A stretch of DNA of 60,252 bases. It comes from Planctomycetales bacterium. Lineage in GTDB: Bacteria; Omnitrophota; Gorgyraeia; Gygaellales; Profunditerraquicolaceae. The DNA is taken from the NCBI GenBank assembly GCA_005239725.1, contig SBBM01000023.1, positions 1 through 60,252 on the forward strand, written 5' to 3'. Of this stretch, positions 5,479-60,127 are shown one piece after another. Both the position numbers and the translations under genes were made by a program. Below the pieces are notes generated by a model that saw only the letters and a list, made by a program, of their open reading frames with translations, was not told the origin of the DNA and searched no databases. Every line of letters begins with the position of its first letter. Positions within the stretch are counted from its first letter, which is position 1.

Positions 5479-5486
5479 TATCGTGA

Positions 5487-5562
5487 AGCGGATAGCGGAT
5501 AGCGGATAGCGGATAGAAAAAATTTGAACCTTCTATACGCTCTACGCTAAACGCTACACGCT
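5487..5562. repeat. Heptamer-periodic palindrome: (AGCGGAT)x4, 14-nt spacer, inverted imperfect (AGCGNNN)x4
   Basis: Four perfect tandem AGCGGAT units at 5487-5514. The partner arm at 5531-5562 reads AGCGTGT AGCGTTT AGCGTAG AGCGTAT on the other strand. It fills the delta-alpha intergenic gap. Confidence 0.9.
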
Positions 5563-5563
5563 A

Positions 5564-5767
5564 TTATTTATACACCTCAATACAGCAGTCCGGGCAGATG
5601 ACCGCGCACATGGCGCACCCCAGACAATTGCCGCCCTTTTTAAACTCTACAAAAGTTATTCCCCGCTTATTCATCTTTGTGCCTGCCTTTATCGCGCCCT
5701 TCGGGCAAACACTAACACACAATAAACATCCCTTGCATTTTTCTTTGTCAATCGTTATCCTTGGCAT
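5564..5767 (-). CDS. 2-oxoacid:ferredoxin oxidoreductase, delta subunit (2x[4Fe-4S] ferredoxin)
   Basis: CKGCLLCVSVCP and CLGCAMCAVICP cluster motifs. 67 aa. Confidence 0.8.
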   Translation of the reverse strand: MPRITIDKEKCKGCLLCVSVCPKGAIKAGTKMNKRGITFVEFKKGGNCLGCAMCAVICPDCCIEVYK

Positions 5768-7599
5768 AAATATTGCTTAATCTTGGCGGAAATCCCTTTT
5801 GAGTCCAGACCGTATTTTTCTAACAATAAACCTCTTTTACCGTGAGTGACAAATTCGCAGGGCAAGCCGATTTTGATTGCCTGCCTATCTATAGCCGCAC
5901 AAACCGCCTCTCCAAAACCGCCGTCTAAAATCCCTTCTTCAAGCGTAAAAATAAATTTTGACTTTGCCGAAATAGCTTTTAATAAATCAACGTCCAACGG
6001 TTTTAAAAACCGGCTGTTGATTAAACCCCCTGAAAACCCTTCTTTTTCCAGCAATTTTATTGCCTCAAGCGCAGGGATAACCATGCTGCCTAAAGCGACT
6101 ATCGCAAAATCCTTTCTTTCTTTTAATAACTCTGATTTCCCCAGTTCAATTTTGGAATTTGGAAATTGGGATTTGTTTGGAATTTTATCCTTGGGATACC
6201 TTATCGCAACCGGCTTATTTAAATTTAACGCGAATTCAAGCATGTCCTCAAGCTCCGGCCCGTCTTTAGGGGCCATTACAATCAGATTAGGGATACCCCT
6301 TAAAAATGTCAGGTCAAATATCCCCTGATGCGTTACCCCGTCTTCTCCCACGACACCTGCGCGGTCAATAGCAAATACTACCCCTAAATTCTGCAATGCC
6401 ACATCCTGGATAATCTGGTCGTAGGCCCTTTGTAAAAAGGTAGAATAAACCGCAACAACGGGCTTAAGGCCGGCGGCAGACAGCCCTGCCGCAAAAGAAA
6501 CCGCATGCTCTTCGGCAATACCGACATCAAAGAACCTCTCCGGGTATAAATCCCGGAATTTATCCAGACCCGTGCCTTCCGGCATGGCCGCGGTTATAGC
6601 AACAATCTTTTCATTTTCTTCGACTAATTCTAATAATTTTTTGCTAAAAACCTCCGTGTAAGTCAGGGAATCTTTAGATAAACCTTCGCCGGTTGTAATC
6701 TCAAAAGGCCCTACCCCATGGAACTTTACCGGGTCGTTTTCTGCCGGCTGATAACCTTTTCCTTTTTTGGTAATGACATGCAGTATGCGCGGGCCCTTGA
6801 TATTAAGTATATTCTTTAATGTCGGCACCAGAATATCCAGGTTGTGCCCGTCGAGTGGCCCGAAATAACGGAATCCTAATTCCTCAAAGAATAGGCCCGG
6901 GACAAATAAACCCTTTAAACCTTCTTCAAATTTATTGGCGATTTTTAAGAGTCTGCTCCCTTTAGGCAGGCGCGCCTGCAACGACTCCCTGAAACGGTTA
7001 TATAAAGGCAAGGAGATTAACTTGTTTAAATAATTGCTTAACGCCCCGACATTGGGGGCGATACTTAATTCGTTGGTATTTAAAATAACCAGTATATCTT
7101 TTTTGAGGTGGCCGGCGTTATTTAAACCTTCAAAACATATTCCGCCGCTTAAAGAGCCATCTCCGATTACTGCCACAACTTTAAAATGCTCTTCTGCCGG
7201 CTTATCGCCCCTGGCACAGGCAAGCCCTAATGCCAGTGATATGGCAGTTGAGCTGTGCCCGGTAGTGAATATATCGTATGCTGACTCCTCCCTGCAGGGG
7301 AATCCGCTTAATCCGCCGTATTGCCTTAAGGTGTCAAACCGTACATTCCTTTCGGTTAAGATCTTATGGGCATAGGCCTGGTGTCCGACGTCAAAAATTA
7401 TCTTGTCGCGCGGCGCATCCAGGCAATAGTGCAGGGCGATTATAATCTCCACTGCCCCCAGGCTTGAGGCAAGGTGACCTCCGGTAGTCGACACTACTTC
7501 GATAATCCGCTGCCTCACTTCTCCGGACAATTGATGCAATTGCTCGAGAGACAGTTTTTTCAGGTCCTGCGGGGAATTTACGGATTCTAAAAGCGTCAT
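5755..7599 (-). CDS. dxs: 1-deoxy-D-xylulose-5-phosphate synthase
   Basis: 614 aa. GGHLASSLG, DVGHQAYAHKILT, IGDGSLSGG TPP motif. Confidence 0.95.
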   Translation of the reverse strand: MTLLESVNSPQDLKKLSLEQLHQLSGEVRQRIIEVVSTTGGHLASSLGAVEIIIALHYCLDAPRDKIIFDVGHQAYAHKILTERNVRFDTLRQYGGLSGFPCREESAYDIFTTGHSSTAISLALGLACARGDKPAEEHFKVVAVIGDGSLSGGICFEGLNNAGHLKKDILVILNTNELSIAPNVGALSNYLNKLISLPLYNRFRESLQARLPKGSRLLKIANKFEEGLKGLFVPGLFFEELGFRYFGPLDGHNLDILVPTLKNILNIKGPRILHVITKKGKGYQPAENDPVKFHGVGPFEITTGEGLSKDSLTYTEVFSKKLLELVEENEKIVAITAAMPEGTGLDKFRDLYPERFFDVGIAEEHAVSFAAGLSAAGLKPVVAVYSTFLQRAYDQIIQDVALQNLGVVFAIDRAGVVGEDGVTHQGIFDLTFLRGIPNLIVMAPKDGPELEDMLEFALNLNKPVAIRYPKDKIPNKSQFPNSKIELGKSELLKERKDFAIVALGSMVIPALEAIKLLEKEGFSGGLINSRFLKPLDVDLLKAISAKSKFIFTLEEGILDGGFGEAVCAAIDRQAIKIGLPCEFVTHGKRGLLLEKYGLDSKGISAKIKQYLCQG

Positions 7600-7841
7600 T
7601 TCTCTTCTTTTTCTTGCGATTCGCTAAACTTATCCAGGGAATATTTGCCGTCTTTTTTCATTAACAATTCCACCTTACGCTGAGCCTCGTTTAATGTCGC
7701 AGAACAACCCTGGGCTAATTTAATGCCCTCTTCGTATTTCTTCAGAGACTCCCCCAGAGTAAGTTTCCCGCTGGCTAATTCTTCCACGATTTTCTGCAGC
7801 TTCCTCATATCCTCTTCGAATAGTTGTTTATCTTTAGCCAT
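7596..7841 (-). CDS. xseB: Exodeoxyribonuclease VII small subunit
   Basis: 81 aa helical protein (FEEDMRKLQKIVEELASGKLTLGESLKKYEEG), directly downstream of xseA. Confidence 0.85.
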   Translation of the reverse strand: MAKDKQLFEEDMRKLQKIVEELASGKLTLGESLKKYEEGIKLAQGCSATLNEAQRKVELLMKKDGKYSLDKFSESQEKEEK

Positions 7842-7932: not shown

Positions 7933-9189
7933 TTAACTGGCGTCTTCATTTACCTCCCTGACAGAACTGAGAAAAGAACCTTTGGCCAATATTGTTTTTA
8001 CCGAATCGCCGGGTTTTAATTTGTCTGCCTCTCTGATAATTGCCCCGTCGGGCATAAGCATAGTCAGGCTGTAGCCGCGCGATAATATGGAAAGGGGGCT
8101 TAGGGTCTCTAATTTTTCAATTAAGGATTTGAACTTTTCTTTTAACATATTCAAGAAATGCGCTGCATTTGAATTTAATGCGTTAACCAGCTCATCAAGC
8201 AGCTGCTGCTTTTCCAATAGCCGGTCTAAGGGGCTCTTGAGCATATGCCTTAAAGCCACAAGGCCATGGCGCAGATCAGCAATAAACGTTGAAAGTGAAG
8301 AGTTTAACCTGTATTTATAAGTGTCTATCTGAGCAAGCAGCGCGTTTTTCTTATCCACGATAACCTTGGCTGCGGCTGACGGTGTTTCCACAAATACATC
8401 CGCCACAAGGTCGGAAAGCGTAACGTTTATCTGATGGCCAACGGCAGAAATCGTAGGTATTCTGGAATTATATACTGCCCTGGCAACGGCCTCTTCATTA
8501 AATGACCAGAGGTCTTCGAGGCTACCCCCTCCGCGGCAGATTATGATTACATCCACTTCCTTTCCCGCAAAATGCGGGATCCCGCCCTCACCTTCATTCG
8601 CTTGGCGGGAATATTTATTAAAGTCTTCGATTGCCTCGGCTATCTCCCGCCAGGCGCCCTCGCCTTGCACCCTTACCGAGCGTATCAGGACATCTACGCA
8701 AGGGGCGCCTTTCTTAAGTATCTGCAATATATCCCTCACTGCCGCGCCGGCGCTAGAGGTAACAATGCCAAGCCGAAACGGCATAAGGGGAAGCGGTTTT
8801 TTATGTTCAGGGGCAAACAGGCCCTCTTTAAGCAACCTGGCCTTTAACTGCTCAAAAGCCAACTGCTGCGCGCCCACCCCTTCAGGCTCAATCTTTTCTA
8901 CGATTAACTGGTATTGCCCGCGCGGAGAGTAGACTTCAATCCTGCCGAAGCATATTACCTTAAGCCCGTCTTCAATCTTAAATTTAACTTCGCGATTGGC
9001 GCGGATAAACATCGCCGCTGCCAGGACCGAAGCTTCATCTTTTATGGTAAAATAAAAGTGGCCGGATGTAGCTACTTTAAAATTAGAGACCTCCCCCTCA
9101 ACCCAGACCTCTCTGAATGTGTTCTCTAAAACTACTTTTATATCGCGGGTAATCTCGGATACCGTATAGATGTGCCTGGTTTCTACCAT
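7933..9189 (-). CDS. xseA: Exodeoxyribonuclease VII large subunit, carrying an in-frame palindromic-element insertion
   Basis: OB-fold N-terminus VWVEGEVSNFK, GIVTSSAGAAVRDI, RGGGSLEDLWSFNEE. Confidence 0.9.
   Translation of the reverse strand: MVETRHIYTVSEITRDIKVVLENTFREVWVEGEVSNFKVATSGHFYFTIKDEASVLAAAMFIRANREVKFKIEDGLKVICFGRIEVYSPRGQYQLIVEKIEPEGVGAQQLAFEQLKARLLKEGLFAPEHKKPLPLMPFRLGIVTSSAGAAVRDILQILKKGAPCVDVLIRSVRVQGEGAWREIAEAIEDFNKYSRQANEGEGGIPHFAGKEVDVIIICRGGGSLEDLWSFNEEAVARAVYNSRIPTISAVGHQINVTLSDLVADVFVETPSAAAKVIVDKKNALLAQIDTYKYRLNSSLSTFIADLRHGLVALRHMLKSPLDRLLEKQQLLDELVNALNSNAAHFLNMLKEKFKSLIEKLETLSPLSILSRGYSLTMLMPDGAIIREADKLKPGDSVKTILAKGSFLSSVREVNEDAS
8563..8610 (+). repeat. Double-hairpin palindromic element, 48 nt, inside the xseA coding sequence
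   Basis: TCCCGCA-AAA-TGCGGGA | TCCCGCC-N17-GGCGGGA. Contains GCGGGATCCCGC at 8574-8585. Confidence 0.85.
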
Positions 9190-15315: not shown

Positions 15316-15567
15316 AAAAAAAATCCCCGCATTGTGCCGTTGGCTTGATGGGGCTGAACCGTTTAGGTTACAGGTGGGTGCCTCCCTTTAACGCCTAAGC
15401 GATAAAGGAGTCTAAGCACCCATTATTTTGGTGTTGGTCCACCAATCATCAATTTCCCAACGTGCACCGCAGGGATATCTTTCCGTCCGCTTATTTCATA
15501 TATCGCGGCATCCCGCCTGCTATTGTATAGCTTGGCGGGAAAAAGAACTTTTCTTTCTCCTCCAGGC
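15316..15567 (-). ncRNA. Candidate structured small RNA or leader (~250 nt) of unknown class
   Basis: Promoter TTGACT-N17-TATACT (15602-15574, minus). Long-range helix 15457-15474 with 15325-15343. Internal hairpin TGGGTGC...GCACCCA at 15375-15422. U8 run at 15316-15323. No plausible ORF. Confidence 0.45.
15483..15544 (-). repeat. Double-hairpin palindromic element copy (intergenic, minus orientation)
   Basis: Minus strand reads TTTTTCCCGCC-AAGCTATACAATAGCA-GGCGGGA TGCCGC-...-GCGGAC. It is nearly identical in its first hairpin to the 44947 copy. Confidence 0.8.
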
Positions 15568-17405: not shown

Positions 17406-19511
17406 CTACCTGAATTTGGCTTGAAATTTATCCGCCAACACGCCGGATATGGAAGAATGAAGCGGGGTTACCTCTGCTTCGGTTAAGGTACGTTCGCAAG
17501 AACGATAAAGGCAGGATATGGTTAAGCCTTTAAATCCGGCAGGGATTTGTTTACCTTTATAAGAATCTATGATTTTAGTCTCGGCAAGTAAATCTCCCGC
17601 GCCTTCCTTTATTACTTGCAGTATTTTTCCCACCGGAACATCATCTTTAAGTATAAGGCTTAAATCCCTGGAGATGCCGGGATATAACGGCAGGGATTTA
17701 AATTCCCGCTTTAAGCTTATAGAGCCGGACAACTTTTCCAGGGAAACCTCGGCAACAAAGGCATCCCTGTTTTTTATTTCAAGGTTATCCAAAACATCCC
17801 TTTTCAGCTTGTGGAGCGCGCCTATCTTTTCTTTGCCTAAAGCCACTTCTATCTTATAAGCATCGGGCGTAAGATTAAAATTGTAATCTCTGATGCCCAG
17901 CCTGTCGAAAATAACTTGTAAAATTCCTTTTAGATGCAGAAAGCCTGCTCCATCCTTTACCTGCCCTTGCTCAAACCAGAGGCTTCTTACGCCGCATAAA
18001 GCAATGCCCAGGATTAACTCCTCTTTTGGCATGCCGTTCTCTTTGGAAAAACCTTTGGCGATTTCAAATATATTAATGTATTCCTGTTTTTGGTTAAGAT
18101 TAACAGCCAGACATTTACCCAGGCTGGGGATAAGAGTCGGCCGTAAAATCTCTTGTTCCCTGCTTAAAGGATTTAAAATTTCCGCGCTCTCGGCATAATC
18201 TTGGCCAAAACCTTTTAACAAGCCCCTGTCAATAAGACTGTAAGTAATTACCTCGTTTAGGCCCAACCCTGTAAGAATATTTTTGATGAGCCCAACCTGC
18301 TCTCTTAACCCCGGCCTGTTTATCCCCGGGGTAATCACGGGCAGGGTGTTGGGTATATTTTCATAGCCGTATATGCGGGCTATTTCTTCAACCAGGTCAA
18401 CCCCGGTTTTTACGTCCGGACGGAAAGATGGCACCTTAACATTTAAAATATTTTTTCCTTTTGATTCAACCTTAAAATCCAAGTTGCTTAATATAGATTT
18501 TATTTTGGCCGCGGCGATATTTATGCCTAAATTTTTATGGACGAATTCCGCATCCAGGGCGATTATTGTTTTCTTTTTCGCGAGACTTCCGGAATCTTTA
18601 ACTAAAACTAATTCTCCTCCGGCTAATTCCCGGATTAGCTCTGCCGCGCGGGAGGAAGCCTTTTCAACCAATTCAATATCCACTCCCCTTTCAAATCTAT
18701 AGGAAGATTCGCTCTCTACCCCCAGCATTCTTCTCCCCCGGCGGATGAGCACAGGGTCAAATACCGCCGCCTCAAGGAGCATATTTACCGTTCCTCCGGC
18801 AACTTCGCTGTCTTTTCCGCCCATAACCCCTGCGACAGCCACAGGTTTTTCTCTGTTCGCAATAACTAAAATTTCGGGGTTAAGCGCTTTTTCCCGCCCG
18901 TCAATAATCGTTATCTTCTCGCCTTTCTTTGCCCGGCGGATAATTATTCTATCGCTGTTTAATTTATCCAAATCAAAGGCGTGTAGAGGCTCCCCCAGCT
19001 CAAACAAAACGTAATTGGTAATATCGACAATGTTATTTACACTGCGGCAGTCTAATAATTCCAGCCTTTTTTTAAGCCACTCCGGCGAAGGTCCGACTTT
19101 TACCCCTTTGATTATTTTAGCGGTGTACAAGGGGCAGTCTTTTTTATCTTGAACATTTATTGTTAATGTTTTAGCGTTTAGCGGGTAGCGTTTTCCCGCA
19201 ATGCTATCTCTTAGCTTGCGGGATCCCGCTCTACGGGAAGCGTATAGGATTTTGTTTCTACTATCCGCTATACGCTCTACGCTATGCGCTCGAATTTTTG
19301 CCTTTGTTATTGCCGCTACTTCCCTGGCGACCCCGGCCACGCTCAGCCAGTCCGGACGGTTAGATGTAATTTCGATCTCAAAAATAAAGTCTCCACCGCG
19401 CCCTTCCAGAGATGTAACTTCCAGGCCAGCCATGGTAAGCTTATCGGCAAGTTGTGCCGGCGGAATCCTAATATCTACGAAGTCTTTTAGCCAGTTATAT
19501 GTAATTTTCAT
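17406..19511 (-). CDS. pheT: Phenylalanyl-tRNA synthetase beta subunit. It lacks the N-terminal OB/tRNA-binding domain and carries an in-frame repeat insertion.
   Basis: MKITYNWLKDFV, NRPDWLSVAGVAREVAA, DITNYVLFELGEPLHAFD, SSYRFERGVD, C-terminal FDX-ACB-like end. Confidence 0.9.
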   Translation of the reverse strand: MKITYNWLKDFVDIRIPPAQLADKLTMAGLEVTSLEGRGGDFIFEIEITSNRPDWLSVAGVAREVAAITKAKIRAHSVERIADSRNKILYASRRAGSRKLRDSIAGKRYPLNAKTLTINVQDKKDCPLYTAKIIKGVKVGPSPEWLKKRLELLDCRSVNNIVDITNYVLFELGEPLHAFDLDKLNSDRIIIRRAKKGEKITIIDGREKALNPEILVIANREKPVAVAGVMGGKDSEVAGGTVNMLLEAAVFDPVLIRRGRRMLGVESESSYRFERGVDIELVEKASSRAAELIRELAGGELVLVKDSGSLAKKKTIIALDAEFVHKNLGINIAAAKIKSILSNLDFKVESKGKNILNVKVPSFRPDVKTGVDLVEEIARIYGYENIPNTLPVITPGINRPGLREQVGLIKNILTGLGLNEVITYSLIDRGLLKGFGQDYAESAEILNPLSREQEILRPTLIPSLGKCLAVNLNQKQEYINIFEIAKGFSKENGMPKEELILGIALCGVRSLWFEQGQVKDGAGFLHLKGILQVIFDRLGIRDYNFNLTPDAYKIEVALGKEKIGALHKLKRDVLDNLEIKNRDAFVAEVSLEKLSGSISLKREFKSLPLYPGISRDLSLILKDDVPVGKILQVIKEGAGDLLAETKIIDSYKGKQIPAGFKGLTISCLYRSCERTLTEAEVTPLHSSISGVLADKFQAKFR
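19172..19290 (+). repeat. Composite element: heptamer arm (TAGCGNN x3), double-hairpin core, inverted heptamer arm. Entirely inside the pheT coding sequence.
   Basis: Left arm at 19172-19192. Core TCCCGCA-N16-TGCGGGA TCCCG-CTCTA-CGGGA at 19194-19238. AGCGTATAGG. Right arm ATCCGCT ATACGCT CTACGCT ATGCGCT at 19263-19290. Confidence 0.85.
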
Positions 19512-20260: not shown

Positions 20261-21277
20261 TCAAAATTGTTTTAAAAACCGTAAATCGCTTTCCGCGAAA
20301 AGCCTGATATCATTAATCCCGTATTTGAGCATGGCAATTCTTTCTACGCCCATGCCAAAGGCAAATCCGGTATAAATTTTCGGGTCATACCCGACATGCT
20401 TAAAGACATTGGGGTGGATCATCCCGGAACCTAAAATTTCAAGCCAGCCTTTTCTTCCGCAAACCGAACAACCCTTACCTTTACAAATTATGCAGGAGAT
20501 ATCCACCTCTGCCGAGGGCTCGGTAAAAGGGAAGAAGTGCGGCCGAAAACGCATCTTGATATCTTCTCCGAAAACAGATTTGGCAAAGACTTCCAGGATA
20601 CCTTTTAAATCCGAAAATTTTATATTTTTATCCACCATAAATCCTTCTATCTGATGAAACATAAAGGAGTGGCTGGCATCCACGGCATCCGGGCGATAAA
20701 CCCTGCCAGGCACAACTATTGCCAGGGGCGGCTTGCGCGATTTCATTGCCCGGATTTGCACCGGCGAGGTGTGACTGCGTAAAAGTAGCTTCTTTTTTGT
20801 TTTTAGATAAAAGGTATCAAAGGCATCCCGCGAAGGATGCTCCAGCGGGATATTTAATCCGGTAAAATTATTTTCTTCGCTTTCGATTTCCGGACCCTCT
20901 ACAACAGAAAATCCCATGCCGGTAAAAATAGAGCAGATTTCATCAATGAGCTGAGTTAAGGGGTGTAGCCGCCCTAAATCCTGGGCAATGCCGGGCATAG
21001 TGATATCTACCTGTCCGGCTGTGGGCGCGCCTACGTCAATGGAAGCAAAGGATTTTTGTTTCTCGTTAAGAAGGGTGTTGATTTTATTTTTAAGAAGATT
21101 GACCTTTTGCCCAAAGGCGCCCCGCTCTTCTTTGGGGAGCTGAGGGATGGAGCCGGTTAATTCGGCAAGGACACCCTTCCTGCCTAAATAGCGCACCCGC
21201 AATTCCTCTAATTTATCCGAAGAATCTATGCCGGATATTTCGTTTTCTATTGTTTGATTAATCGCGTCAATATCCAT
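20261..21277 (-). CDS. pheS: Phenylalanyl-tRNA synthetase alpha subunit
   Basis: HPSRDAFDTFY, FRPHFFPFTEPSAEVD, GFAFGMGVERIAMLKYGI. Confidence 0.95.
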   Translation of the reverse strand: MDIDAINQTIENEISGIDSSDKLEELRVRYLGRKGVLAELTGSIPQLPKEERGAFGQKVNLLKNKINTLLNEKQKSFASIDVGAPTAGQVDITMPGIAQDLGRLHPLTQLIDEICSIFTGMGFSVVEGPEIESEENNFTGLNIPLEHPSRDAFDTFYLKTKKKLLLRSHTSPVQIRAMKSRKPPLAIVVPGRVYRPDAVDASHSFMFHQIEGFMVDKNIKFSDLKGILEVFAKSVFGEDIKMRFRPHFFPFTEPSAEVDISCIICKGKGCSVCGRKGWLEILGSGMIHPNVFKHVGYDPKIYTGFAFGMGVERIAMLKYGINDIRLFAESDLRFLKQF

Positions 21278-44908: not shown

Positions 44909-45020
44909 GTCCCCATCGTCTAGCCTGGCCCAGGACAAGAGCTTTTTCCCGCCAGGCTATGGGATAGCAGGCGGGATCCCGCCCTGATGCGTAAAGGGGT
45001 CGGGCGGGACAAGCTCTCGA
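44909..45020 (+). pseudogene. tRNA-Glu(UUC) 5' fragment (positions 1 to ~46), interrupted in the anticodon by a 63-nt palindromic element
   Basis: 44909-44946 is identical to 45268-45305, and 45010-45020 is identical to 45306-45316. No T arm or 3' acceptor strand. Confidence 0.85.
44947..45009 (+). repeat. Double-hairpin palindromic element, archetype copy (63 nt)
   Basis: TCCCGCC-AGGCTATGGGATAGCA-GGCGGGA | TCCCGCC-CTGATGCGTAAAGGGGTCG-GGCGGGA. Confidence 0.9.
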
Positions 45021-45024
45021 TCGC

Positions 45025-45267
45025 ATGTATTGTGTGTATGTTCTAGAGAATGCAAAAGGCAAACATTATATCGGTAGTTGTGAAAATTTAGACCTGAGAT
45101 TAAAACGGCATAATCAAAACAGCGTCAGGTCAACAAAGAATAAGGGGCCTTTTAAAATAATCTATAAAGAGGAATTTTGCACGGTAACGCAAGCGCGTAG
45201 GCGCGAGAACGAACTAAAAAGCTATAAAGGCAACGCCAAATTTCAGAAAACAATAGATAGAATGTAA
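45025..45267 (+). CDS. Stand-alone GIY-YIG nuclease-domain protein (80 aa)
   Basis: YCVYVLENAKGKHYIGSCENLDLRLKRHN (GIY...YIG), ARRRENELK. Its stop codon abuts tRNA-Glu position 1. Confidence 0.8.
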   Translation: MYCVYVLENAKGKHYIGSCENLDLRLKRHNQNSVRSTKNKGPFKIIYKEEFCTVTQARRRENELKSYKGNAKFQKTIDRM

Positions 45268-45342
45268 GTCCCCATCGTCTAGCCTGGCCCAGGACAAGAG
45301 CTTTTCAAGCTCTCGACACCGGTTCAAATCCGGTTGGGGACG
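45268..45342 (+). tRNA. tRNA-Glu (anticodon UUC)
   Basis: Acceptor GTCCCCA/TGGGGAC, anticodon arm AGAGC-TTTTCAA-GCTCT, T arm ACCGG-TTCAAAT-CCGGT. Confidence 0.9.
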
Positions 45343-59902: not shown

Positions 59903-59977
59903 GGCCCCATCGTCTAGCCCGGTCCAGGACGCGTGCTTCTCAGGCACTAAACACGAGTTCAAATCTCGTTGGGGCTA
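59903..59977 (+). tRNA. tRNA-Glu (anticodon CUC)
   Basis: Acceptor GGCCCCA/TGGGGCT, anticodon arm CGTGC-TTCTCAG-GCACT (one C-U mismatch), T arm ACGAG-TTCAAAT-CTCGT. Confidence 0.8.
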
Positions 59978-60067
59978 TTCTACCGGTTCTCCCCCCCAAT
60001 CTATACGCTAGAGGGCGGGATCCCGCTCGCGGTAAAATAAAATGGCGGGAAAATCTGGTTGGGGCTA
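59978..60067 (-). repeat. Palindromic-element copy inserted at the tRNA-Glu(CUC) 3' end, followed by a 17-nt duplicate of the tRNA end
   Basis: CTATACGCT plus GGGCGGGATCCCGC core at 60012-60049. AAATCT[C/G]GTTGGGGCTA occurs at 59961-59977 and at 60051-60067. Confidence 0.8.
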
Positions 60068-60127
60068 CGTGAAAAGTTTTCCCTTGCAATTTTAACAAAT
60101 TGTGATAAAAATAAATAAGGAGGTTTA

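Follow-up and report, generated by a model that had tools for sequence, protein, structure and literature searches.

A probable mobile double-hairpin element in frame in xseA, with relatives in several bacterial phyla

What is a 48-nt piece of palindromic DNA doing inside the reading frame of a housekeeping enzyme? The question arises at xseA, the gene for the large subunit of exonuclease VII (ExoVII), in a 60,252-nt stretch of DNA from a bacterium of the Omnitrophota (contig SBBM01000023.1, positions 1 to 60,252, assembly GCA_005239725.1). This whole stretch is referred to as the window, and the type of double-hairpin element found at its positions 8563-8610 is called E. The original prediction, made from the letters alone, was that these 48 nt are an in-frame palindromic insertion tolerated in a loop of the enzyme, as Rickettsia palindromic elements (RPEs) are. 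The evidence described here makes it very probable that they are a copy of a small mobile double-hairpin element that was inserted seamlessly and in frame in xseA and that belongs to a family spread over many phyla.

In-frame insertion and hairpin flipping in xseA

On the plus strand, positions 8563-8610 read TCCCGCAAAATGCGGGA, followed immediately by TCCCGCCCTCACCTTCATTCGCTTGGCGGGA. Base 8610 is the first position of codon 194 of xseA, and hence E spans codons 194-209 exactly. Its length is divisible by three and its reading frame is free of stop codons. In the coding direction the long hairpin comes first and the short hairpin second, and the stems of both have the form TCCCGC(C/A)/(G/T)GCGGGA (Table 1). 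The length and the palindromic nature of the stems were as predicted, but the element consists of two hairpins placed end to end and not of a single long palindrome. The placement on the minus strand as exactly 16 codons also held, as did the position upstream of the RGGGS motif, which lies nine residues downstream of E. The translated string given in the prediction contained the 16 inserted residues but was 18 residues long, because it included the flanking Y193 and K210.

Table 1. Features of the window discussed in the text (a caret marks an insertion point; a strand is given where one was assigned)
Feature	Position	Strand	Description
Element E in xseA	8563..8610	-	48 nt, codons 194-209 (SRQANEGEGGIPHFAG), between TAT (Y193) and AAG (K210)
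Short hairpin of E	8563..8579	-	perfect 7-bp stem, loop 3 nt; coding strand TCCCGCA-TTT-TGCGGGA
Long hairpin of E	8580..8610	-	perfect 7-bp stem, loop 17 nt; coding strand TCCCGCC-AAGCGAATGAAGGTGAG-GGCGGGA
xseA (exonuclease VII large subunit)	7933..9189	-	418 aa, intact; RGGGS = residues 219-223
xseB (exonuclease VII small subunit)	7596..7841	-	intact, downstream of xseA, same operon
E in pheT	19194..19238	-	45 nt in frame, read SRRAGSRKLRDSIAG (aa 92-106), nested in another palindromic insert
pheT (phenylalanyl-tRNA synthetase (PheRS) beta subunit)	17406..19511		host of second in-frame E
E in tRNA-Glu(ttc) fragment	44947..45009		63 nt, in anticodon loop (TTTT^CAA) of partial 5' copy
Stand-alone GIY-YIG nuclease gene	45025..45267	+	80 aa, Pfam PF01541, E=1.1e-14
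Intact tRNA-Glu(ttc)	45268..45342	+	empty-site reference for the interrupted copy
Intact tRNA-Glu(ctc)	59903-59977		directly precedes partial 3' copy
E doublet	59990..60050		in T-loop (GGTTC^AAAT) of partial 3' copy of tRNA-Glu(ctc)
Single E-type hairpin	15511..15540		TCCCGCC..GGCGGGA, spacer beside 6S RNA gene

Are these residues extra? When aligned to the window protein, E. coli XseA (PDB 8txr) has exactly 16 residues fewer at the position of E. The distance from the VQG motif to RGGGS is 44 in the window, whereas it is 28 in 61 of 66 distant XseA genes and 27-29 in 65 of them. These 66 genes came from a metagenome scan, are mostly remote relatives, and served solely as a control for loop length. 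The 120 closest homologues, from Omnitrophota and 67-76% identical, allow a finer comparison. Most of them (89) read DFNQF^KQVD without an insert and 26 have an E-type insert; the remainder comprises two with an unrelated 19-residue insert and three with other inserts. These absences from E. coli, from 61 of the 66 distant genes and from 89 of the 120 close ones bear out the insertion that had been predicted. A clean pair of alleles is provided by L204, which is filled, and its 98%-identical relative L205, which is empty. Their flanks, GACTTTAATCAATTT and AAACAGGTGGATGTAATT on the two sides, are identical (CAATTT^AAACAG), and the empty site reads TTT^AAA. The 48 nt of L204 can be placed in only one way against L205, and target duplication is absent. 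This pair is the kind of empty site in close relatives that the original prediction had suggested to look for. It had also been noted that the same 16 residues in orthologues from unrelated phyla would mark them as ancestral protein sequence; the check for these residues in unrelated phyla was negative. L205, empty at xseA, bears a 31+17-nt double hairpin at 6167-6214, in the spacer downstream of dxs. Because this copy has the 31+17-nt architecture, the E form exists in the L205 genome despite the empty xseA.

The host protein is identified as XseA by Pfam (Exonuc_VII_L, E=9.5e-82) and has the OB fold and Exonuc_VII_L domains, and the gene order xseA-xseB, with PF02609, recurs in relatives. 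An AlphaFold2 model of XseA was built from 48 aligned homologues (mean predicted local distance difference test score, pLDDT, 62.7; catalytic domain 74-88). In this model a helix (179-192) is followed by a loop (193-213), a strand (214-219) and then GGGS, and residues 195-208 have a pLDDT below 50. The low-confidence loop between helix and strand agrees with the loop position that the prediction had proposed for the insertion. Cryo-EM of ExoVII showed that the catalytic domain is a compact alpha/beta sandwich (PMC10835039). Judging from the topology, E would sit at the start of the beta-strand whose far end bears the RGGGS motif. Because the loop lies at the strand end away from that motif, the enzyme is expected to tolerate E, which it would carry as a 16-residue disordered loop.

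Elsewhere in the catalytic domain, N255 of the window XseA (codon at ~8425-8427) aligns with D241 of E. coli XseA, for which a catalytic role has been proposed. All 48 aligned Omnitrophota XseA proteins have Asn here, and H252 (E. coli H238) is conserved. Another optional selfish insert lies near xseA in a relative: in L001 (1042-2541), a NifU-like gene upstream of the xseA region has an intein with a LAGLIDADG endonuclease, and the gene encodes 499 aa compared with 127 aa in L210 (4504-4887).

In the genes compared, E at xseA is conserved as DNA and not as peptide. Across six xseA genes, E is 83-98% identical when its orientation is normalised, while the same genes are 65-78% identical outside E and their four-fold degenerate sites are saturated (30-43%). 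Further evidence comes from hairpins that have flipped. The long hairpin occurs in L208 in exact reverse complement, TCCCGCC-CTCACCTTCATTCGCTG-GGCGGGA, and this inversion yields the peptide SRPHLHSLGG in place of SRQANEGEGG. Likewise, the loop of the short hairpin reads CAAAATG (PQN) in most relatives and CATTTTG (PHF) in the window and L207, with a divergent CATATTG in L211. Despite the flips, the two hairpins always keep the same order, and each therefore flips independently. Small inversions between inverted repeats are a known behaviour.

The flips bear on the possibility that the 16 residues are a functional segment of XseA, for instance a loop that makes contacts or has a regulatory role within the ExoVII complex, and that their palindromy is incidental. 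Such a role would fit the intact gene, the invariant catalytic-domain motifs kept by E-bearing XseA proteins, and the peptide end GGIPQNAG, which is alike in many relatives. However, flipping replaces the peptide with PHLHSL or PHF while the DNA stems stay perfect, and the empty close relatives include some that are 96-98% identical to filled ones. Furthermore, the segment is predicted to be disordered, and its DNA motif is found again in spacers, in pieces of tRNA genes and in genes unrelated to xseA. A functional segment is thus very improbable.

The E family and its GIY-YIG units at tRNA genes

How widespread is E? One genome per species was scanned for the two-hairpin pattern, and at least 120 loci were found in many phyla. 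Counts in this paragraph are those among the matches listed. About 45 are from Omnitrophota and about 35 from Patescibacteria; other hosts are Planctomycetes, Lentisphaeria/Kiritimatiellae, Bacteroidota, uncultured Gammaproteobacteria, Armatimonadota, Saganbacteria and Margulisiibacteriota. A few matches in high-G+C genomes are probably chance matches. Conservation across the family is limited to the stems and the 12-nt core GCGGGATCCCGC, in which GCGGGA of one hairpin joins TCCCGC of the next; the loops vary from 3 to 30 nt. E ranges from 30 to 79 nt in length, and copies from the candidate phyla radiation (CPR) are mostly minimal (30-36 nt). Runs of two hairpins number 140 and runs of three number none. 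The flank consensus compiled from 123 copies is TTN^TCCCGC...GCGGGA^NAA; in other words, T(-3)T(-2)N^N A(+2)A(+3) is preferred, and both sides (T at -2 with A at +2) are present in 71 of the 123. Of 125 copies, 70 have a length divisible by three, and about 20 copies lie in frame in long open reading frames (ORFs), where they mostly read SR...AG. Their host genes encode GlgC, PurL, indolepyruvate oxidoreductase, flavoproteins and a peptidase. In a PDB alignment that spans the insert of GlgC, E. coli GlgC has a gap opposite E, as expected, while the alignments of PurL and PheT stop outside the inserted regions. An identical 30-nt perfect palindrome, TCCCGCGAAGCGGGATCCCGCTTCGCGGGA, is present in a member of the Patescibacteria (L004, 1205-1234) and in an uncultured gammaproteobacterial genome (L078, 4157-4186). 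Both copies are flanked by ...TC and CAAT, and the L004 copy is in frame in a long ORF.

Two other candidate explanations for the family were rejected. A phage-borne element is not indicated, as only 3 matches were found in 2.9 million viral contigs. A three-way-junction RNA, or a general insertion into existing hairpins, is not indicated either, because the complementarity of the flanks does not exceed expectation beyond the TT/AA positions. Flank complementarity is real solely for E copies in tRNA arms.

Could the hairpins in xseA be a chance palindrome in a variable loop? Loops are variable in general, and nothing more speaks for this idea. The motif TCCCGC-N(2-25)-GCGGGA has 8 matches in the window where 0.22 are expected, and 8 was reached in none of 100 shuffles. 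The same architecture recurs at the 120 or more loci, and the spacing at the xseA site is nearly invariant across bacteria. Chance can be given next to no weight.

A role at the RNA level has more to recommend it. The hairpins might serve in the xseA-xseB mRNA as signals for pausing, stability or processing, or might be removed from the transcript. The predicted RNA fold of the 86-nt region is strong (-28.6 kcal/mol, z = -3.35), and the structure survives hairpin flipping. However, an Rfam gathering scan of the window matched only tRNAs and 6S RNA, and no Rfam family fits any E copy. The strand-symmetric architecture and the occurrence in both gene orientations and in non-transcribed contexts are typical of an element that acts as DNA, and most close relatives lack E. 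In addition, the excess of multiples of three indicates that the copies in genes have to keep the reading frame and are translated, not removed. There is accordingly only a slim chance that E in xseA owes its presence to a function in the mRNA.

The second in-frame copy in the window, in pheT, has its own filled and empty relatives. Among the pheT homologues, P0161 and P0163 contain the outer insert but no E, a minimal E lies a few residues off in P0162, and both are missing from the majority. The outer insert belongs to a second repeat family, in which short units of the TAGCG/CGCTA type build long palindromes such as AGCGTATAGCGG...CCGCTAAACGCT. The copy that hosts the nested E, at 19140-19300 (pheT codons ~75-115), is translated in pheT; another copy at ~5480-5570 lies in the spacer just downstream of a ferredoxin-like ORF that is 3' of dxs. 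The window PheT is without the ~100-residue B2/tRNA-binding domain of solved bacterial structures, so that its residue 114 aligns to PDB residue ~205, and the closest PheT homologues (~677 aa) likewise are without this domain. In a spacer, the single E-type hairpin is preceded by a degenerate partner ending GCGGCA. It lies ~30 nt upstream of the 5' end of a 6S RNA gene (15320-15478, minus strand; Rfam RF00013, 62 bits). A further single hairpin, in pheS (20826-20850), is possibly native and has a length, 25 nt, that does not divide by three; it was not counted as a copy.

The remaining copies are found in pieces of tRNA genes. One of them splits a partial copy of tRNA-Glu(ttc) into 44909-44946 and 45010-45020. 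The TTTT^CAA junction lies unbroken 288 nt downstream, within the intact gene, and there is no duplication at the insertion. A tRNA intron was considered for this copy and rejected, because ARAGORN, run with and without its intron mode, and direct reading show a truncated duplicate beside an intact gene. The other is the doublet near the end of the window, which has one mismatch in the stem of its first hairpin. It interrupts a partial 3' tRNA copy (T-arm and acceptor strand, within 59978-60070) that reads ACCGGTTC, E, AAATCTGGTTGGGGCTA.

Directly downstream of the E copy in tRNA-Glu(ttc) is a small stand-alone gene for a GIY-YIG nuclease, whose stop codon abuts base 1 of the intact tRNA-Glu. 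The region 44909-45342 as a whole is a composite of tRNA nt 1-35, the 63-nt double hairpin, tRNA nt 36-46 with the GIY-YIG gene, and the intact tRNA-Glu. It resembles a free-standing nuclease cassette equipped with a substitute for part of the tRNA gene that it targets.

This arrangement recurs. An 80-90-aa stand-alone GIY-YIG nuclease is the ORF family most often shared near E, and E lies directly 5' of a GIY-YIG ORF in at least 6 loci from three phyla (the window, L068, L092, L045, L106, where 3-4 units show this, and L216-L219). The recurring layout is a partial tRNA copy split by E, then the GIY-YIG gene, then the intact tRNA; it is found, for example, in V. archaeovorus (L068). The tRNA and the split point vary. 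In L092 and L216 the split lies in the D-loop of tRNA-Glu, and L216 (1040-1800) has two units in tandem; L045 (Saganbacteria) has a tRNA-Ser unit split in the T-loop; and L106 (Margulisiibacteriota, 1-1400) has four tandem units at tRNA-Asp. Tandem arrays upstream of a tRNA gene, as in L106 and L216, would be expected from repeated cutting and refilling of the intact copy, or from unequal crossing-over. The long hairpin of the GIY-YIG units opens with TCCCGCCAAGCGA, as does that of the xseA copy. Moreover, the E junction peptides RDPA, SGIP and RRDP occur in N-terminal extensions of three further GIY-YIG homologues. Among the matches listed, a GIY-YIG gene is present at 7 of 120 E-selected loci and at 0 of 80 control loci. 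The geometry of the units is the stronger argument, because the control loci come from other taxa. No gene family other than GIY-YIG was repeatedly attached to E in a survey that included no scan for Y1 transposases.

What moves E? The 80-aa GIY-YIG nuclease is the best candidate mobiliser. From the arrangement of the sequences, we tentatively suggest that the xseA copy is non-autonomous, resembles a miniature inverted-repeat transposable element (MITE), and may be mobilised in trans by such a nuclease, a proposal we regard as possible but short of probable. A more speculative extension is that E and the 80-aa GIY-YIG gene might together represent an undescribed class of mobile element. Its autonomous unit would reside in the D-, anticodon- or T-loops of tRNA genes and bring a replacement tRNA piece. 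The candidate nuclease would recognise the TCCCGC/GCGGGA double hairpin and move solo copies seamlessly in and out of TTN^NAA, housekeeping reading frames included, across Omnitrophota, Patescibacteria, Margulisiibacteriota, Saganbacteria, Planctomycetes and other phyla.

History of the xseA site

Was E gained at xseA many times or once? The filled sequences are dispersed over a neighbour-joining tree of XseA that was calculated after removal of the insert columns, and Fitch parsimony requires at least 19 gains or losses for the 26 filled. For most filled proteins, the nearest empty relative is closer than the nearest filled one. P0003 is 98.1% identical to the empty P0062, P0004 is 96.6% identical to the empty P0075 but 85% to its nearest filled relative, and for both P0010 and P0017 an empty relative reaches 93.8% identity. 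Intergenic copies that match the xseA long hairpin are present in other Omnitrophota loci (L082, L103 and L112).

The site itself has received other inserts. In L003 (4202-5491) and L206 (2052-3314), which belong to two different clades, the TTT^AAA of xseA holds an unrelated 57-nt palindromic element, ACCCCGTTAGAGAC...GTCTCTAACGGGGT, and in L209 a third, different insert is found at the same boundary. The two 57-nt elements have a perfect 14-bp stem (ACCCCGTTAGAGAC/GTCTCTAACGGGGT); their stems are identical, their loops have diverged, and there is an apparent TTT repeat at the ends.

A model for the xseA copy can be proposed from these findings. E would have entered xseA at TTT^AAA, between the codons for Phe/Tyr193 and Lys, without a target-site duplication. 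Translation of the 48 nt would then have added 16 disordered residues to the loop that joins the last helix to the RGGGS strand. The movement would be catalysed by a structure- or sequence-specific enzyme, because gain and loss are both exact.

The strongest competitor of repeated insertion is a single ancient one. In this alternative, E entered the xseA of an ancestral Omnitrophota bacterium once, or arose there as a lineage-specific loop, and was then inherited vertically, removed exactly many times, and kept in sequence by selection. The xseA site is always the same, the xseA copies of E cluster and are more alike than any of them is to a sampled non-xseA copy, and the loop variants QTNKGE and QANEGE partly track host clades. 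Judged by these patterns, one old insertion with repeated exact loss fits about as well as repeated insertion. However, E, including its 17-nt loop, remains 83-98% identical next to saturated four-fold sites, and selection on the peptide cannot explain this conservation because a hairpin flip changes the peptide completely. An enzyme would also be needed to delete E exactly a dozen times or more where no direct repeats flank it, and the two unrelated inserts, in L003/L206 and in L209, at the same TTT^AAA point to a site that is hit repeatedly. A single ancient insertion is less likely than not, and it is by far the most serious of the alternatives. An exact and presumably enzymatic reaction is required either way, because the xseA flanks offer no direct repeats.

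Homing between xseA alleles with co-conversion of the flanks was also considered but is not indicated, since the flanks of E follow the host lineage and those of L204 and L205 are identical. No conversion tract was seen around E among the few xseA DNA sequences compared, which are too few for exclusion.

Besides the clustering of the xseA copies and the clade-tracking loop variants, several points count against a mobile E that is tolerated in XseA and moved by a GIY-YIG nuclease. The XseA model is of moderate quality overall, and translation of the insert is deduced from its frame and length. The E-selected loci are a biased sample and their controls are from other taxa. The link between E and GIY-YIG could be indirect, with both associating with tRNA genes, and the GIY-YIG gene is absent from the neighbourhood of xseA.

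Comparison with known systems

That a palindromic mobile element can be tolerated in frame is already known as a general phenomenon. What appears to be new is the E family, its breadth across phyla, in-frame hairpin flipping, the repeated use of one codon boundary, and the link to a minimal tRNA-associated GIY-YIG gene. Genic palindromic elements, namely the RPEs of Rickettsia and some families of repetitive extragenic palindromes (REPs), have so far been viewed as lineage-specific curiosities. E would show the same lifestyle at 30-79 nt, with only two 6-7-bp stems conserved, in several phyla of mostly uncultivated bacteria with small genomes. The clean filled and empty alleles, the flips that give alternative peptides and the repeatedly hit boundary in xseA amount to a natural experiment on loop tolerance. 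In addition, E gives rise to length variants that stay in frame, and these can mislead the assignment of orthologues and the annotation of metagenome-assembled genomes. Finally, E and the minimal GIY-YIG gene at tRNA genes suggest a testable pair of enzyme and element; if the pairing is true, GIY-YIG would be a further enzyme family, beside the HUH, DDE and serine/tyrosine recombinases, that drives a bacterial miniature-element system.

No published description of a bacterial E element was found in a full-text literature search, and several known systems resemble it in part. At 16 residues, E is far too short for an intein. RPEs are ~100-150 bp long and are not known outside Rickettsia. Like them, E is a palindromic repeat that lies in frame in housekeeping genes, where it would be translated as a tolerated surface segment, and that also occurs in non-coding DNA. 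It differs in its length of 30-79 nt, its ends (TCCCGC...GCGGGA, without a CGTC tag) and its hosts, which are Omnitrophota, Patescibacteria, Planctomycetes and other phyla. Thus, the prediction of an RPE-like element was apt for behaviour but not for membership, as E falls outside the Rickettsia RPE families and the GTAG/CGTC REP superfamilies and is part of a separate, far more widespread family of double-hairpin elements. RPEs end in the tetranucleotide CGTC (PMC3733652).

REPs are imperfect palindromes of 20-40 nt, often in doublets, and some lie inside genes, notably those for replication and repair, where related species sometimes share the site (PMC3733652). One of their ends bears a GTAG or CGTC tag, and they are found in association with the RAYT (REP-associated tyrosine transposase) (PMC3733652). 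E resembles REPs and REPINs in being a short imperfect palindrome that always occurs in doublets among the matches listed. REPs are regarded as non-autonomous and as dependent on a dedicated enzyme, encoded by a gene that they flank, and RAYT is a tyrosine transposase of the IS200/IS605 type. In contrast, the 123 copies of E have neither a GTAG nor a CGTC tag and show a symmetric TTN^NAA target, and the attached gene, where present, is GIY-YIG.

A classical MITE, which is a derivative of a DDE transposon, has terminal inverted repeats and a target-site duplication. E differs in the absence of a duplication, both in the L204/L205 pair and at TTTT^CAA in tRNA-Glu. Elements derived from IS200/IS605 are inserted 3' of an asymmetric tetra- or pentanucleotide in a single-strand "peel and paste" reaction that needs a Y1 HUH transposase. 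They share with E the hairpin ends and a seamless insertion without target duplication. The target preference of E, however, is two-sided (71 of 123 copies among the matches listed); a Y1 transposase was not searched for.

The tRNA units recall small GIY-YIG homing genes. Phage T4 SegB is a free-standing GIY-YIG homing endonuclease encoded in a tRNA gene cluster. The likeness, seen here in layout alone, consists of a small gene at a tRNA, partial tRNA duplicates that leave an intact tRNA, and tandem reiteration (L106 and L216). The difference is that the window protein is ~80 aa and consists of the catalytic domain alone, with no DNA-binding domain recognisable by Pfam, and that the unit has E at its 5' side. 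In Allomyces mitochondria, double-hairpin elements (DHEs) occur together with a mobile endonuclease ORF, which supplies a substitute segment of atp6, and in yeast mitochondria a GC cluster lies in frame in var1.

Mitochondrial DHEs of chytrids and fission yeast are G+C-rich, consist of two adjacent stem-loops, are dispersed in spacers and genes, and are suspected to be mobile (PMC10085805). They are nearly identical across species, which has raised the question of selection or transfer (PMC10085805). Compared by description and not by sequence, DHEs are nearest to E in architecture, as both consist of two adjacent hairpins, and they share the same unexplained identity across species. DHEs are organellar, whereas E is bacterial, is found in several phyla, and has the defined 12-nt core GCGGGATCCCGC.

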